From Rhodopseudomonas palustris (GTDB lineage: Bacteria; Pseudomonadota; Alphaproteobacteria; Rhizobiales; Xanthobacteraceae): a stretch of DNA of 64,000 nucleotides. Positions 10,827-45,518 of this stretch are shown piece after piece. The stretch covers positions 3,842-67,841 of the forward strand of contig JACRJB010000006.1 of NCBI GenBank assembly GCA_016215605.1, given 5' to 3'. The notes under the pieces were generated by a model. That model saw only the letters and a list, made by a program, of their open reading frames with translations, had not been told where the DNA came from and searched no databases. How positions within the stretch are numbered: position 1 is the first letter of the stretch; every line of letters begins with the position of its first letter. The position numbers and the translations under genes were made by a program.

Positions 10827-10891
10827 CGCAGGGCTGTTCCGACGATCCGCATCGTTGTGAAAAGCGCCGAAAGCTGCTATCGAGCAGCCGC

Positions 10892-10961
10892 CTCGCGCGA
10901 CTGGCGACCTTGGATGGAGCACCATCGGGAAGCGCGGGATTTAGCTGCCGCGCGCCTGGGC
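10892..10961 (+). promoter_or_regulatory. ZTP (pfl) riboswitch
   Basis: P1 CUCGCG/CGCGGG, conserved GACUGGCG, P2 GAUGG/CCAUC, GGGAAG, 3' GCCGCGCGCCUGGGC; directly upstream of purH. Confidence 0.9.
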
Positions 10962-10994
10962 ATAGGTTTTCCTAACGACACAGGATTCTTGCCC

Positions 10995-12730: not shown

Positions 12731-12834
12731 AAGAGGCGACTGCCTCAACCGTCATCGCCTTTGCAGGCGGGCGATGACAATTGTTTTGCGAAAGCGGGGT
12801 AGCGACCCGAGGCCGCCGCCCCGCGCTCCACTGA

Positions 12835-13923
12835 TCAAGCCGCAGCACCTTCCTGCTGGGCGGTGCGCCGTGCCGATCGCCGGCTATCCACGGCTTCCGC
12901 CAGCTCGTGCAGCACCGTCTCGGTCGTCGCCCAGTCGATGCAGCCGTCGGTGATGCTCTGGCCGTACTGCAGCGGCCGGCCCGGGACGACGTCCTGCCTT
13001 CCGGCGACCAGATTGCTCTCGATCATCACGCCGATGATGCGGGCAGCGCCGGCCGCGAGCTGACGTCCGATATCGGCCGTGACCTTCGGCTGGTTCTCCG
13101 GCTGCTTGCTGCTGTTGGCGTGGCTGGCGTCGATCATCAGGCGCGGCGGCAGGCCGATTTTGCCGAGCTGCGCTGCGGCGGCTTCGACGCTGGCGGCATC
13201 GTAATTCGGCGTCACGCCGCCGCGCAGGATGACGTGGCAGTCGCTGTTGCCGGTGGTGGCCGCGATGGCGTTGCGCCCGCGCTTGGTCACCGCCATGAAA
13301 TGATGCGGCTGCGCGGCGGATTTCACCGCCTCCGCGGCGATCCGGACGTTGCCGTCGGTGCCGTTCTTGAAGCCGATCGGACACGACAGGCCGGACGCCA
13401 GTTCGCGGTGAATCTGGCTCTCGGTGGTGCGGGCGCCGATCGCCCCCCAGGCGACGAGATCGGCGATGTATTGCGGCGTGATCAGGTCGAGGAATTCGGT
13501 GGCGGCGGGCAGGCCGAGATTGTTCACGGCCGCGAGCACCTGGCGCGCCAGCCGCAGCCCCTTGTCGATCCGGAAGCTGCCGTCGAGGTCGGGGTCGTTG
13601 ATCAACCCCTTCCAGCCCACCGTGGTGCGCGGCTTTTCGAAATACACCCGCATCACGATCTCGAGCTGGTCGGCCAGGGTCTCGCGCAGCGCCGCCAGAC
13701 GGCTGGCATAGTCCATGGCCGCGGCCGGATCGTGAATCGAACAGGGGCCGACCACGACCAGCAGCCGGTCGTCGGCGCCGGTCAGGATGGCGTGAATCGC
13801 GCTGCGGCTCGCCGCAACGGTGCGGGTCGCGGTCAGCGTGCGCGGAACCTCGCCCATGACGTCGTCGGGCGTACTCAGTTCGGTGATCTTCTGCAGGCGA
13901 AGGTCGTCGGTGGTGGTCAACAC
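12835..13923 (-). CDS. aroG: Class I DAHP synthase (AroF/AroG/AroH type)
   Basis: VVGPCSIHD, RVYFEKPRTTVGWKG, IGARTTESQIHR, FKNGTDG, DASHANS, SITDGC; isozyme type not resolved. Confidence 0.9.
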   Translation of the reverse strand: MLTTTDDLRLQKITELSTPDDVMGEVPRTLTATRTVAASRSAIHAILTGADDRLLVVVGPCSIHDPAAAMDYASRLAALRETLADQLEIVMRVYFEKPRTTVGWKGLINDPDLDGSFRIDKGLRLARQVLAAVNNLGLPAATEFLDLITPQYIADLVAWGAIGARTTESQIHRELASGLSCPIGFKNGTDGNVRIAAEAVKSAAQPHHFMAVTKRGRNAIAATTGNSDCHVILRGGVTPNYDAASVEAAAAQLGKIGLPPRLMIDASHANSSKQPENQPKVTADIGRQLAAGAARIIGVMIESNLVAGRQDVVPGRPLQYGQSITDGCIDWATTETVLHELAEAVDSRRSARRTAQQEGAAA

Positions 13924-13957
13924 GGCAGTCTGCTCCTTGTGAGGAGACCTGCCGGCT

Positions 13958-13991
13958 CAAACGAAAAAGCCGCCAGGTCTGGCGGCTTTTC
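13958..13991 (-). terminator. Attenuator terminator upstream of DAHP synthase
   Basis: Minus strand gaaaagccgccag-ac-ctggcggctttttcgttt: 12-bp stem plus U-tract. Confidence 0.85.
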
Positions 13992-14011
13992 GGATTTCGA
14001 TGCTGCAATCT

Positions 14012-14089
14012 TCAGATCGAGCGAAATCCTCCCGCCGCCAGCGAGGTGCTAAAATAGAAGTACCAGAACGAGGCGGTCAGGTGGATCAT
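14012..14089 (-). CDS. Aromatic amino acid leader peptide MIHLTASFWYFYFSTSLAAGGFRSI
   Basis: Six consecutive aromatic codons; followed by antiterminator and terminator, then DAHP synthase. Confidence 0.85.
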   Translation of the reverse strand: MIHLTASFWYFYFSTSLAAGGFRSI

Positions 14090-14096
14090 GCGGCTC

Positions 14097-14125
14097 CTAT
14101 AGACCAAGCCGGGGTGGTTTGTCCA
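14097..14125 (-). promoter_or_regulatory. Sigma70-type promoter for the leader (likely leaderless transcript)
   Basis: TGGACA-N17-CTATAG, 7 nt before the leader ATG. Confidence 0.6.
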
Positions 14126-14137
14126 CGGCAGCGAATC

Positions 14138-15538
14138 TCATCCTTCCGCAGAGGGCCGCACCCGCGCCAGCAGCGCCAGTCCTGCGACGAAGAACAGCAC
14201 CAGCACCGCCATGCCGGCCTTCTGGCTCGCGGTGATGGCGGTGACGGTGCCGATCAGCAGGGGGCCGACGAACGACGTCACCTTGCCGGTCAGCGCGAAC
14301 AGGCCGAAATACTGCGCGATGCGGTCGCGCGGCGCGATCCGGATCAAGAGCGTGCGCGACGCGGCCTGCAGCGGCCCGCCGGCGATCCCGATCAGGCAGC
14401 CGAGCAGCAGATAGGCGCGCTCCGCCGGGGCGGCGAACAGCGCCGCGCCCGGCTGCGGCGGCGTCACCGCGACGAACAGGATGTGCGACGGATCGATCAG
14501 CAGGATGCCGGTGATCGCGATCAGCAGCAGCACGATCGAGCCGGCGATCACCCGCCTGGAGCCGAGCGCATCGTCGAGCCGGCCGCCGATGAAGGCGCCG
14601 AAGGTCGCGGCGATCGCCAGGATCACGCCGAAGCTGCCGATCTGGATCGTGCCCCAGCCGAACGTGCCGGTGGCGTAGATGCCGCCGAACGCGAACAGCG
14701 ACACGAGGCCGTCGGTGTAGATCATGTTGGCGAGCAGGAAGGCGGCGAGCGAGCGCCGCTGCGGCAGATCCCGCAGCGTCTCGCGCAACTCGCGCAGGCC
14801 TTCGCCGACCGCCGCCTTGACCGACAGTTTTGCCGGAAAATCCGGCGTCAGCAGAAACATCGGCAGCACGAACACGGTGAACCACAATCCCGTGAGCGGT
14901 CCGGTGATGCGGTCGCCCTGATGGCTCGCGGCGTCGAGTCTGAACAGCGGCGTGACGCCGAGCAGCGTCTTGCCGGTCTGCGGATTGGCGGCGAGGAAGC
15001 CGAGCACCAGGATCAGCGAGAGAATGCCGCCGATATAGCCGGTGGCCCAGCCGGTGCCCGACAGCCGGCCGATCTTCTCCGGCGGCACCAGGTTCGGCAT
15101 CATCGCGTTGTTGAACACGGTGGCGAATTCGACCCCGATGGTCGCCAGCGCATAGGCGATCAGCAGCGGCAGGATCACGCTGGAATCGCCCGGCCGGCCG
15201 AACCACATCAGCGACGAGCCGATCACCAGCATCGCGCCGAACACAGCGATCCACGGCTTGCGCCGGCCGGAGGCGTCGGCGACCGCGCCGAGAATCGGCG
15301 AGGCGAGCGCGATCAGGAAGCCGCTCGCCGCGGTGGCGAAGCCCCACAGCGATTGCCCGGTGGCCGGATCGGGCGCCACATAGGTGGCGAAATAGGGGGC
15401 GAAGATGAAGGTGGTGATCAGCGTGAAATATGGCTGCGCCGCCCAGTCGAACAGGATCCAGCCGGTGACCGCGGCGCGCGACGGATAGGTCTTCGGCGCA
15501 GCGCCGCGCGAGAGGTCGGACGCGATCGATGACGTCAT
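14138..15538 (-). CDS. MFS transporter (UMF1/Atg22-like)
   Basis: WILFDWAAQPY, YTDGLVSL, QAASRTLL, FGLFALTGK; about 12 TM. Confidence 0.85.
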   Translation of the reverse strand: MTSSIASDLSRGAAPKTYPSRAAVTGWILFDWAAQPYFTLITTFIFAPYFATYVAPDPATGQSLWGFATAASGFLIALASPILGAVADASGRRKPWIAVFGAMLVIGSSLMWFGRPGDSSVILPLLIAYALATIGVEFATVFNNAMMPNLVPPEKIGRLSGTGWATGYIGGILSLILVLGFLAANPQTGKTLLGVTPLFRLDAASHQGDRITGPLTGLWFTVFVLPMFLLTPDFPAKLSVKAAVGEGLRELRETLRDLPQRRSLAAFLLANMIYTDGLVSLFAFGGIYATGTFGWGTIQIGSFGVILAIAATFGAFIGGRLDDALGSRRVIAGSIVLLLIAITGILLIDPSHILFVAVTPPQPGAALFAAPAERAYLLLGCLIGIAGGPLQAASRTLLIRIAPRDRIAQYFGLFALTGKVTSFVGPLLIGTVTAITASQKAGMAVLVLFFVAGLALLARVRPSAEG

Positions 15539-27276: not shown

Positions 27277-28743
27277 ATGAACAAGCCCCTGCGCGACACC
27301 GAACTGCTTCCGGACGACGACGGAGGTCCGCTCTACGCCGCCGGAAAGAAGATCTATCCGCAGAGCGTGTCGGGGTCGTTCCGCCGGATCAAATGGATCC
27401 TGATGGCGGTCTGCCTCGGGATCTATTACTTCCTGCCGTTCGTGCGCTGGAATCGCGGTCTCGCCGCGCCCGACCAGGCGGTGCTGATCGATCTGGCCAA
27501 CAACCGGTTCTATTTCTTCTTCATCGAGCTGTGGCCGCAGGAGATCTACTACTTCACCGGCCTGCTGATCGTCGCGGCGGTCACGCTGTTTCTGATGAAC
27601 GCGCTCGGCGGCCGGGTGTGGTGCGGCTATCTCTGTCCGCAGACGGTGTGGACCGATTTGTTCTACGCGGTCGAGCGCCTGGTCGAAGGCGACCGCCGCG
27701 AGCGGATGCGCAAGGCCGAGGAAGGCTGGTCGATGCAGCGCGGCGCCGAGCTGGTGCTGAAGCATTCGATCTGGCTGATGATCGCGTGGTGGACCGGCGG
27801 CGCCTGGGTGCTGTACTTCGCCGACGCGCCGACCCTGATCAAGGAGCTGGTCACCTTCCAGGCGCCGATGGTCGCCTATATCTGGATCGGCATCCTGACC
27901 GCGACCACCTACACGCTCGCCGGCTTCATGCGCGAGCAGGTCTGCGTCTACATGTGTCCGTGGCCGCGGATCCAGGCGGCGCTGACCGACGAATGGGCGC
28001 TCAACGTCACCTACAAATACGACCGCGGCGAAACTAGGACGTCGCTGAAGAAGGCCGCGCAGCTGCGCGCGCTCGGCGAGCAGGTCGGCGACTGCGTCGA
28101 CTGCAACCAGTGCGTCGCGGTGTGCCCGACCGGGATCGACATCCGCAACGGCCCGCAGCTCGACTGCATCCAGTGCGGCCTGTGCATCGACGCCTGCGAC
28201 AACGTCATGACCAAGATCGGCCGCCCGACCCGGCTGATCGGCTACGACAACGACATCAACATCCATCGCCGGATGGAGGGCAAGCCGGAGGTGTTCAAGC
28301 CGCTGCGTGCCCGCACCGTGGTGTATTCCGGCCTGATCGCCGCGATCGGCGCGGTGATGCTGTACGCGATGCTGACCCGCAGCCTGCTCGACCTCAACGT
28401 GCTGCACGACCGCAATCCGGTCGCGGTGCGGCTCAGCGACGGCTCGATCCGCAACGGCTACACCATCCGCTTCCTCAACAAGCGCGGTTTCGACCGCGTC
28501 GTCGCGGTCGACGTCGACGGTCCGCCGAACGCGGTGATCCACGTCGTCGGTTCGGACTCGATCACGCCGGACCGGCCGATGATCATTCTCGCCCGCGACA
28601 CCACCACCGAACTGCGCGTGCTGGTGGATTCCCGGCCGCAATCCGAGGAAGACCTCGCACCGTCGACGCCGGTGAAGTTCCACGTCACCGATATCGGCCT
28701 TGGCGAGGTCGCGACCGCCAAGGACGTCTTCGTCAAGCCCTGA
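27277..28743 (+). CDS. ccoG: Cytochrome c oxidase accessory Fe-S protein
   Basis: WCGYLCPQT, CVYMCPWPRIQ, CVDCNQCVAVCPTG, CIQCGLCIDAC. Confidence 0.95.
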   Translation: MNKPLRDTELLPDDDGGPLYAAGKKIYPQSVSGSFRRIKWILMAVCLGIYYFLPFVRWNRGLAAPDQAVLIDLANNRFYFFFIELWPQEIYYFTGLLIVAAVTLFLMNALGGRVWCGYLCPQTVWTDLFYAVERLVEGDRRERMRKAEEGWSMQRGAELVLKHSIWLMIAWWTGGAWVLYFADAPTLIKELVTFQAPMVAYIWIGILTATTYTLAGFMREQVCVYMCPWPRIQAALTDEWALNVTYKYDRGETRTSLKKAAQLRALGEQVGDCVDCNQCVAVCPTGIDIRNGPQLDCIQCGLCIDACDNVMTKIGRPTRLIGYDNDINIHRRMEGKPEVFKPLRARTVVYSGLIAAIGAVMLYAMLTRSLLDLNVLHDRNPVAVRLSDGSIRNGYTIRFLNKRGFDRVVAVDVDGPPNAVIHVVGSDSITPDRPMIILARDTTTELRVLVDSRPQSEEDLAPSTPVKFHVTDIGLGEVATAKDVFVKP

Positions 28744-44099: not shown

Positions 44100-45518
44100 C
44101 TATTCCTGCAGCAGGCGCTTGAGCGACTCGACCTCGTCGCTCAGCGTGTTGTCCTTGGACACCAGACCTTCGATCTTGCGCACGGCGTGCAGCACCGTGG
44201 TGTGGTCGCGCCCGCCGAAGCGGCGGCCGATTTCCGGCAGCGAGCGCAGCGTCAGCGTCTTGGCCAGATACATCGCCACCTGGCGCGGCCGCACCACATT
44301 GGCGGTGCGGCGCGACGACAGCAGGTCGGAGCGGCTGACGTTGTATTGCCGCGCGACGACGCGCTGGATGTCCTCGATCTTGATCCGCTTCGGCTCCTGC
44401 GGCCGGATCAGGTCGCGCACCTCGTGCTCGGCCATTTCCAGCGTCACCGGCTGGGCGTTGAGCTTGGAGTGCGCCAGCAGGCGGTTGATCGCGCCCTCGA
44501 GGTCGCGGCCGTTATGCGTGATGGCACGCGCCAGATATTCCAGAACCGGCTGCGGCACGTCGAAGCTCGCATGATGCGCGCGCGCCGCGACCACGCGCGA
44601 CTTCAGGATGCCGAGCCGCAGGTCTTCGCCGAGCGGCGCCATTTCGACCACCAGACCGCCGGCGAGCCGCGAGCGCACCCGCTCGTCGAGGCTTTCGAGA
44701 TCGGCCGGCGGACGATCGGCCGCGACCACCACCTGGCGGCCGGCGTCGATCAGCGCGTTCAGCGTGTGGCAGAACTCGGCCTGGGTGGTCTTGCCCTGCA
44801 GGAACTGCAGATCGTCGATCACCAGCACGTCGATGCCGCGCAGCGCTTCCTTGAAGGCGAGCGAGGTCTGCGTCTTCAGCGCGGCGACGAAGCCGTACAT
44901 GAACTTCTCGGCGGTGAGATACAGCACCTTGCGCTCGGTGCCGGAATTGCCGGCCCAGGTCACCGCCTGCAGCAGATGCGTCTTGCCGAGGCCGACGCCG
45001 GAATGGATGTACAGCGGGTTGAACATCACCGGATCGCCGCGGCGGCCTTCGGCCACCTGCTTGGCGGCGGCATGCGCCAGCGTGTTGGAACGGCCGACCA
45101 CGAAGCTCGCGAACGTCAGGCGCGGATCGAGCGGCGAGCCGCCGAGCGCGTCGTGGCTGGTCGAGGCCGGCGCGGTGGCGTAGTTGCGCGTGTCGGTCGC
45201 CGGACGATGTTCGTCGCGGCGCTGCTCGGCCGGCGCCGGCGCTTCCTTGGTGGTGGCGGCGCGCATCGGCGATCGCACGGTGAGATCGATGCGGCAGACT
45301 TCCGGCATTTCCGCCTGCCAGCAGGTCAGCACCTTGTCGGAGTAGTGGGTCTGGATCCAGCTCTTCAGAAACCGGGTCGGCACCGACAGATGCACGCTCT
45401 CCTGCTGAACGGCTTCGAGATCCATGCGCGCGAACCAACTCGAATAGACGTCCTCGCCGACGCTCGAGCGCAACCGGCCTTTGACGCGAGACCAGCGATC
45501 ATGTTCCATATTCGACAT
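44100..45518 (-). CDS. dnaA: Chromosomal replication initiator DnaA
   Basis: [46 protein letters not shown]. Confidence 0.98.

Follow-up and report, generated by a model that had tools for sequence, protein, structure and literature searches.

A probable leader-peptide attenuator with a mixed Phe/Trp/Tyr codon run upstream of a class I DAHP synthase gene and of its relatives in Alpha-, Beta- and Gammaproteobacteria

How the supply of aromatic amino acids is read at the entry of their common pathway is the question raised by one locus in the window analyzed here, a 64-kb stretch (64,000 nucleotides, nt) of Rhodopseudomonas palustris contig JACRJB010000006.1. The locus contains, on the minus strand, an aroG-type class I (AroF/G/H-type) 3-deoxy-7-phosphoheptulonate (DAHP) synthase gene, whose product matches NCBIfam models TIGR00034 with 528 bits (cut-off 173) and NF009395 with 523.6 bits. 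Directly upstream lies a short open reading frame (ORF) with a run of aromatic codons, followed by a hairpin and a U tract. An initial annotation, made from the letters alone, had proposed an unannotated leader-peptide attenuator reading Phe, Trp and Tyr codons. This proposal is supported: the unit precedes about 50 of 80 homologous genes, compensatory changes occur in both alternative helices, and no Rfam, Pfam or NCBIfam model describes it. Comparative evidence and computed folds make it very probable that the element is a classical ribosome-mediated (leader-peptide) transcription attenuator of the DAHP synthase gene. In the best reading it senses charged tRNA-Phe and tRNA-Tyr and, in the clade of the window, tRNA-Trp.

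All coordinates are positions within the window, and the locus is read on the minus strand (Table 1). The leader ORF encodes a peptide of 25 residues with six consecutive aromatic codons (F W Y F Y F), as initially described. Only two runs of at least four aromatic codons were found in the six frames of the window, and the six-codon run occurs in the leader only; the other run, FYFFF at 27508 (+), is probably located inside a membrane-protein gene. The G+C content of the window is 67%. Two of the four Phe codons of the leader are TTT (14051-14053 and 14024-14026, minus), against counts of 62 TTC and 5 TTT in the four neighboring genes. Closure of the regulatory run by a rare TTT would presumably sharpen the response.

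All four segments of a classical attenuator are present in the leader, with CCGCC common to segments 1 and 3 and GGCGG common to segments 2 and 4. The signature GGCGG..CCGCC..GGCGG[CT]TTT occurs once in the window, at the leader, and the leader (177 nt) folds with z = -3.0 against dinucleotide shuffles. In minimum free energy (MFE) folds, segment 1, GAUCCACCUGACCGCC (14087-14072), pairs with GGCGGCGGGAGGAUU (14039-14025) of segment 2, placing the aromatic codons in the loop of this 1:2 helix; the hairpin amounts to -25.3 kcal/mol and the duplex of the two segments to -20.9 kcal/mol. Alternatively, CUGGCGGC (14041-14034) can form an antiterminator with segment 3; as claimed in the initial annotation, it is the exact complement of GCCGCCAG (13986-13979) in the 5' arm of the terminator. 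The 2:3 structure, including an inner hairpin, reaches -32.5 kcal/mol, and the inner hairpin is retained in Mesorhizobium and Bradyrhizobium, where A-U replaces a G.U pair. The terminator and antiterminator helices are mutually exclusive. A stem with U tract before the gene had also been reported, and a terminator of 11-12 bp with U5 is indeed present; its distance from the gene, counted from the end of the U tract (13964) to the GTG start, is 40 nt and not 34, a minor difference, the smaller figure having been counted from about the end of the interval originally marked. Every element listed in the initial annotation was found, while the 1:2 anti-antiterminator helix and a fifth segment downstream of the terminator had been overlooked.

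These parts suggest the following course of events. Transcription would start at the leader AUG, or 1-2 nt from it, at a promoter of the CTTGAC/CTATAT type, as suggested by the geometry. When charged tRNA-Phe, tRNA-Tyr or tRNA-Trp is scarce, the ribosome would stall in the FWYFYF run and mask segment 1; segment 2 (CUGGCGGC) would stay free, since its start is just past the leading edge of the ribosome. Free segment 2 could then pair with the emerging segment 3 (GCCGCCAG), so that the terminator would be blocked and RNA polymerase would enter aroG. When aromatic amino acids are plentiful, or when no ribosome is loaded, formation of 1:2 and then of the 3:4 terminator is predicted, releasing an RNA of about 126 nt. 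What we infer in this scheme is the transcription start site, the translation of the leader, the termination in vivo and which amino acids limit decoding. A ribosome footprint of 30 nt was simulated on a transcript that was cut off ahead of segment 4. Here segment 3 paired upstream when the footprint was on or before the aromatic codons; with the footprint over segment 2, this upstream pairing was lost or sharply reduced. Multivalent attenuators are known from Escherichia coli, where the thr operon responds to Thr and Ile and ilvGMEDA to Ile, Leu and Val. As in those leaders, codons for several end products are combined in one leader and any of them can relieve termination, but the pathways differ.

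For comparison, 80 loci encoding the closest relatives of the DAHP synthase of the window were collected, one genome per species. The best relatives are found in Mesorhizobium (82-83% identity) and Bradyrhizobium (75-78% identity). The initial annotation had suggested inspecting the upstream regions of orthologues for conserved aromatic runs; such runs were found, the whole unit (an ORF with aromatic codons plus the same terminator just 5' of the gene) being present in about 50 of the 80 aroG loci. The carriers span Alpha-, Beta- and Gammaproteobacteria and include Mesorhizobium, Bradyrhizobium, Devosia, Roseovarius, Rhizobiaceae, Xanthomonadales and Burkholderiales. Among the 80 loci, the unit was not found in Enterobacterales, Methylophilaceae, Rhodocyclales and other more distant homologues. 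The leader peptides read MIHLTASFWYFSY..SSLAAGGLRSI in Mesorhizobium, MITVATSYFWYFSYDSSLAAGGSRSI in Bradyrhizobium, MINAATFYWYFSYPLPAEAIARVS in Devosia, MNANRSFYFWYYGFPMPLAEEGVRSP in Xanthomonadales, and MSAKFYFYFFWHLKPLADREG and MFARHFFTAYFYFSNSNPKAVE in Burkholderiales; the attenuator unit is also present in Roseovarius. Rhizobium and Neorhizobium carry an interrupted variant (..RFYSY..): in the leaders of Rhizobium tropici and Neorhizobium (L034:2331-2467 and L045:2302-2438; MSFAHAYASRFYSYRC.. and MSFTSFYASRFYAYRC..) the Phe and Tyr codons are interrupted and Trp is absent, and segment 3 reads CCGCUAG, compensated by an A in segment 2. As a separate observation on L008:2358-2407, runs X24 and X28, attributed to one Bradyrhizobium-like organism, contain a further contig whose leader (ATGAGCCGCATGATCCACCTGACCGCCTCG) is of the Mesorhizobium type, which suggests that another organism or another copy is present in these samples.

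Could the hairpin be a mere terminator of the upstream MFS transporter gene, with the aromatic ORF present by chance? It does lie on the strand of the MFS gene, about 150 nt 3' of its stop codon. This explanation is effectively refuted by the linkage of the unit to aroG in three proteobacterial classes, with a conserved promoter of its own, by the uniqueness of the six-codon aromatic run in the window, and by the constant spacing between ORF and helices.

Two alignments were used, A1 with the Mesorhizobium and Bradyrhizobium leaders and A2 with 46 leader sequences. Little or no variation is seen in A2 at GGCGG (segment 2), CCGC (segment 3) and GCGG (segment 4). Segment 2 codes for varying residues (LAAG, LADR, KAVE, PAEA), and its wobble positions are fixed within Mesorhizobium and Bradyrhizobium. 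Since segment 2 is near-invariant while the encoded residues differ, selection appears to act on the RNA. The terminator is paired in 94% of the cells of A2, with compensatory change at four pairs, for example G-C in alpha- and gammaproteobacterial leaders versus A-U in betaproteobacterial ones; its covariation score was reached by none of 500 shuffles, and slid registers collapse. The antiterminator is paired in 85.8% of the cells. One of its core pairs changes from G-C to A-U in L034, L045 and L041 (Rhizobiaceae and Formosimonas), with zero broken cells there. In the Rhizobiaceae the terminator partner remains G, forming a G.U pair; the antiterminator change therefore tracks segment 2. The 1:2 helix is better than shuffles (z < -1.64) in 20 of the 46 loci, among them the whole clade of the window and Burkholderia.

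The position of the codon run relative to the RNA segments is also constrained. Counted from where the last aromatic codon begins, the GGCGG core follows at a median distance of 14 nt, and at exactly 14 nt in most loci, including the window; this distance would be expected if the leading edge of a ribosome stalled on the run is to stop just short of segment 2. The frame in which segment 2 is read is kept in 37 of the 46 leaders.

A metabolite- or protein-binding leader, such as a riboswitch, a T-box or an operator for TyrR, TrpR or PhhR, might be considered in place of a ribosome sensor, given that aromatic biosynthesis is controlled by TyrR and TrpR in enterics and by T-boxes in Firmicutes. 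Such a leader is very improbable here. All Rfam families remain below the gathering threshold at the leader, both in the window and in 20 related loci, and no riboswitch aptamer or T-box matched in 13000-15000 even at E <= 10. No TyrR-box-like site was found near the locus, the sole weak match of the window being at 45008. Moreover, what is conserved is a translatable aromatic run in fixed frame and at fixed distance. The best Rfam match at the leader is RF01859 (Phe_leader), full-length, with 29.4 bits and E = 0.026, which does not reach the gathering score of 55. RF01859 represents the enterobacterial pheL-pheA leader, which resembles the attenuator of the window in its four-segment architecture and Phe-rich leader ORF; however, pheL regulates the chorismate mutase/prephenate dehydratase and has a Phe run, in contrast to the mixed F/Y/W run and the leaderless-like start in the window.

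Which of the aromatic amino acids are effectively read is less certain than the type of the attenuator. A Trp codon is found within the run of 34 of the 46 leaders, usually a single one placed centrally, and 11-12 leaders are without it. The position of this central codon is constant across Mesorhizobium, Bradyrhizobium, Devosia, Roseovarius, most Xanthomonadales and Burkholderia. Its retention argues for a function, as drift would be expected if it were neutral. Of the amino acids tryptophan is the scarcest, and no more than two Trp codons are needed by the trp leader of E. coli. It is nevertheless possible, if less likely, that an attenuator of the same type acts in effect as a sensor of Phe, or of Phe and Tyr, with the single Trp codon not limiting: Phe and Tyr codons dominate every leader, and the Trp codon is missing from the run in the remaining leaders. 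A related case points in the same direction. According to the part of PMC11802643 that summarizes Neshat et al. 2014, the leader peptide aroR (Phe-Tyr-Phe) of Corynebacterium glutamicum controls aroF by ribosome-mediated attenuation and responded to Phe limitation, while Tyr availability was without effect despite the Tyr codon. As described there, aroR-aroF shares with the window aromatic regulatory codons in a leader peptide before a DAHP synthase gene, and it is the only experimentally tested case that was found at the pathway entry enzyme. It differs in belonging to an actinobacterium and in having three regulatory codons without Trp, compared to six to eight codons including Trp in the family of the window; the likeness drawn here is one of description, and the proteobacterial family has its own conserved CUGGCGG/CCGCCAG module.

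Several points weigh against the attenuator as outlined above. In roughly half of the loci the 1:2 helix falls short of significance, and it is weak in several beta- and gammaproteobacterial lineages. For a truncated transcript free of ribosomes, equilibrium folds often favor 2:3 over 1:2; because 2:3 often wins thermodynamically without a ribosome, the OFF state would depend on the kinetic order, with 1:2 forming first. The OFF state of the E. coli trp attenuator likewise relies on kinetic order. In the clade of the window, a ribosome at the stop codon leaves CUGGCGGC uncovered (20-nt gap). Integration of three amino acids is plausible but unproven, because 11-12 of the 46 leaders lack a Trp codon in the run and the Tyr codon of C. 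glutamicum gave no Tyr response. RNA runs of the source organism were not found, the window sequence being matched by metagenome DNA runs only; its carriers are groundwater and other metagenomes, seemingly nothing else. RNA runs of relatives (Bradyrhizobium, Stenotrophomonas, Paraburkholderia) are available as assembled Logan contigs with flat depth, in which ends are not shown. Contig breaks coincide with the terminator in two runs related to Paraburkholderia, but they are not interpretable.

The start of the leader transcript deserves separate treatment. The promoter-like TGGACA-N17-CTATAG with an ATG 7 nt further on, as given in the initial annotation, is present at 14125-14097 and 14089. 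The counterpart of its -35 element in the relatives is GTGACA and that of its -10 element CTATAT, with CTATA invariant in A1; a GTGACA-N17-CTATAT motif is conserved in all alphaproteobacterial loci and is close to the rhizobial sigma-70 consensus CTTGAC-N17-CTATAT. The Xanthomonadales loci have TGTGCTATCAAT at equal distance from the ATG. A simple promoter/terminator scanner picked up neither the promoter nor the terminator of the leader; the promoter was missed because CTATAG breaks the rule of the scanner, which needs T at position 6. The gap between -10 element and ATG is 7-9 nt in all alphaproteobacterial loci. No conserved Shine-Dalgarno (SD) sequence precedes the leader ATG in any compared locus; in the window only, an AGGAG overlaps the -10 element, 4 nt 5' of the ATG. 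A TTG-initiated ORF of 31 residues (14107) was considered as an alternative leader and rejected, its start being inside the promoter spacer and not conserved. The short gap together with the lack of a conserved SD sequence argues for a leaderless or near-leaderless leader mRNA, with a putative transcription start site (TSS) at or next to the AUG.

A leaderless transcript invites comparison with Sinorhizobium meliloti, where rnTrpL starts at the trpL AUG and is both a leaderless mRNA and a trans-acting small RNA (PMC6614838, PMC7298713, PMC10117765), the leaderless trpL having been shown experimentally (PMC7298713, PMC10117765). The initial annotation had named leaderless rhizobial trpL leaders with trans functions as a known precedent, correctly so. 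Both systems comprise an alphaproteobacterial leader ORF, which starts at the TSS in trpL and may do so in the window, and termination frees a small RNA there and would free one here; trpL differs in having Trp codons only, in regulating trpE(G) and in its demonstrated trans functions. By analogy with rnTrpL, the idea that the terminated leader RNA might act in trans is a legitimate one. A dual-function element, in which the leaderless RNA of about 126 nt or the 25-residue peptide is also trans-acting like rnTrpL/peTrpL of Sinorhizobium, nevertheless seems unlikely. Besides the precedent itself, the AUG 7-9 nt past the -10 element, the absence of an SD sequence and the very high nucleotide conservation across Mesorhizobium and Bradyrhizobium would fit it. 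However, the peptide is not conserved beyond what the RNA segments impose, its C-terminal 'LA..G' being segment 2 read in frame, and the alternative helices alone account for the conservation.

Directly 3' of the U tract lies the additional segment 5, GAGCCGGCAGGU, which is invariant across Mesorhizobium and Bradyrhizobium (GCCGGCAGGT in A1). It is complementary to ACCUGGCGGCU, that is, segment 4 plus the loop, and the 4:5 hairpin amounts to -19.4 kcal/mol; this helix is also predicted by RNAalifold, with the U tract then located in the hairpin loop. Compared with shuffles, a partner for segment 4 at this place reaches significance in all alphaproteobacterial loci and in several of the Xanthomonadales, and counterparts of segment 5 were recognized in L001-L014, L016, L018, L025, L034 and L072. 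The pairing of segments 4 and 5 covaries in Devosia (CGAGG with CCUCG) and in Roseovarius. A wider reading combines an ancient unnamed family, a segment 5 that silences read-through RNAs through the choice between segment 4 and the aroG start, and an abundant leaderless leader RNA that acts in trans together with its peptide; pairing of segment 5 with segment 4 would be confined to read-through transcripts, the start region of aroG being its partner in all other cases. Taken jointly, these proposals are improbable. Translational silencing of read-through RNAs with the terminator fold was not supported as a feature of the family: when the accessibility of SD sequence and start codon was compared between enforced antiterminator and terminator states in 46 loci, the mean difference was -0.007. 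In the window alone, the values of the two enforced states were 0.43 versus 0.27.

The leader family is apparently unnamed, while the attenuation mechanism itself is already established and not new. No Pfam or NCBIfam models for the leader peptides were found, copies of the leader ORF in protein databases are labeled 'hypothetical' or 'uncharacterized', and the plasmid collection contained no match to the leader. The open full-text literature, searched also with the peptide strings, yielded no proteobacterial description, although an earlier in-silico prediction in older subscription comparative-genomics papers is possible; likewise, no description of mixed aromatic-codon sensing at the common pathway entry enzyme was found for Proteobacteria in the open literature. 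The leader sequence and the gene name are both absent from the supplements of the Bradyrhizobium japonicum TSS paper (PMC4842269), and the leader is not mentioned in the B. japonicum small-ORF paper (PMC5082802).

If the proposed attenuator is correct, a single RNA of about 130 nt would use translation directly to gauge how much Phe, Tyr and probably Trp is available, at the enzyme by which carbon is committed to the shikimate pathway. Control of DAHP synthase in E. coli requires three isoenzymes and two repressors. Mechanistically, the leader of the window is an expected variant of textbook attenuation; its distinguishing features are the breadth over three proteobacterial classes, the almost invariant CUGGCGG/CCGCCAG module and the mixed F/Y/W run. 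The family occurs in rhizobia, Xanthomonas/Stenotrophomonas and Burkholderia/Paraburkholderia, where the ORF is missed or called 'hypothetical protein', and naming it would improve annotation and help to account for the regulation of aromatic biosynthesis in these groups. For metabolic engineers, the leader would be an obvious site of deregulation and a compact natural sensor of aromatic amino acids.

Table 1. Features of the aroG leader region in the window, in order of transcription.
Feature	Sequence or product	Coordinates	Strand	Remarks
Stop codon of upstream MFS transporter gene	TGA	14140-14138	minus	
-35-like hexamer	TGGACA	14125-14120	minus	position kept in A1 and other alphaproteobacterial loci
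-10-like hexamer	CTATAG	14102-14097	minus	17-nt spacer after -35 element
Leader start codon	ATG	14089-14087	minus	7 nt past -10 element
Leader ORF	MIHLTASFWYFYFSTSLAAGGFRSI*	14089-14012	minus	25 codons + TGA; stop TGA 14014-14012
Segment 1	GAUCCACCUGACCGCC	14087-14072	minus	codons 1-6; 5' arm of 1:2 anti-antiterminator (MFE folds)
Regulatory run	TTC TGG TAC TTC TAT TTT (F W Y F Y F)	14068-14051	minus	codons 8-13
Segment 2	CUGGCGGCGGGAGGAUU	14041-14025	minus	partner of segment 1, or of segment 3 via CUGGCGGC (14041-14034)
Inner hairpin between segments 2 and 3		14029-13992	minus	holds leader stop codon; -13.5 kcal/mol
Segment 3	AAAAGCCGCCAG	13990-13979	minus	terminator 5' arm
Intrinsic terminator	AAAAGCCGCCA-GACC-UGGCGGCUUUU	13990-13965	minus	11-12 bp stem, 4-nt loop, -17.2 kcal/mol
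Segment 4	CUGGCGGC	13976-13969	minus	terminator 3' arm
U tract	UUUUU	13968-13964	minus	first U's pair with AAAA of segment 3
Segment 5	GAGCCGGCAGGU	13958-13947	minus	directly 3' of U tract
Stretch of segment 5	GCCGGCAGG		minus	
Partner of aroG SD sequence	CUCCU	13946-13942	minus	pairs with AGGAG
aroG SD sequence	AGGAG	13937-13933	minus	within AAGGAG 13938-13933
Partner of segment 5 at aroG start	CUGCCG	13928-13923	minus	can pair with segment 5
aroG start codon	GTG	13923-13921	minus	
aroG	class I (AroF/G/H-type) DAHP synthase, 362 aa	13923-12835	minus	

Further RNA elements were noted in the neighborhood. At 10887-10968 (+), just 5' of purH, a ZMP/ZTP riboswitch aptamer was recognized (RF01750, 58.6 bits against a gathering score of 39); the mechanical ORF start of purH at 10857 is probably too far upstream, because it overlaps the riboswitch. 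The genes purH (+) and aroG (-) converge, and between their 3' ends there is a terminator-like hairpin, GTCATCGCC..GGCGATGAC (12751-12778). In Stenotrophomonas maltophilia, a tandem glycine riboswitch with two RF00504 aptamers (L027:4474-4680, minus strand) is found about 1 kb downstream of aroG.

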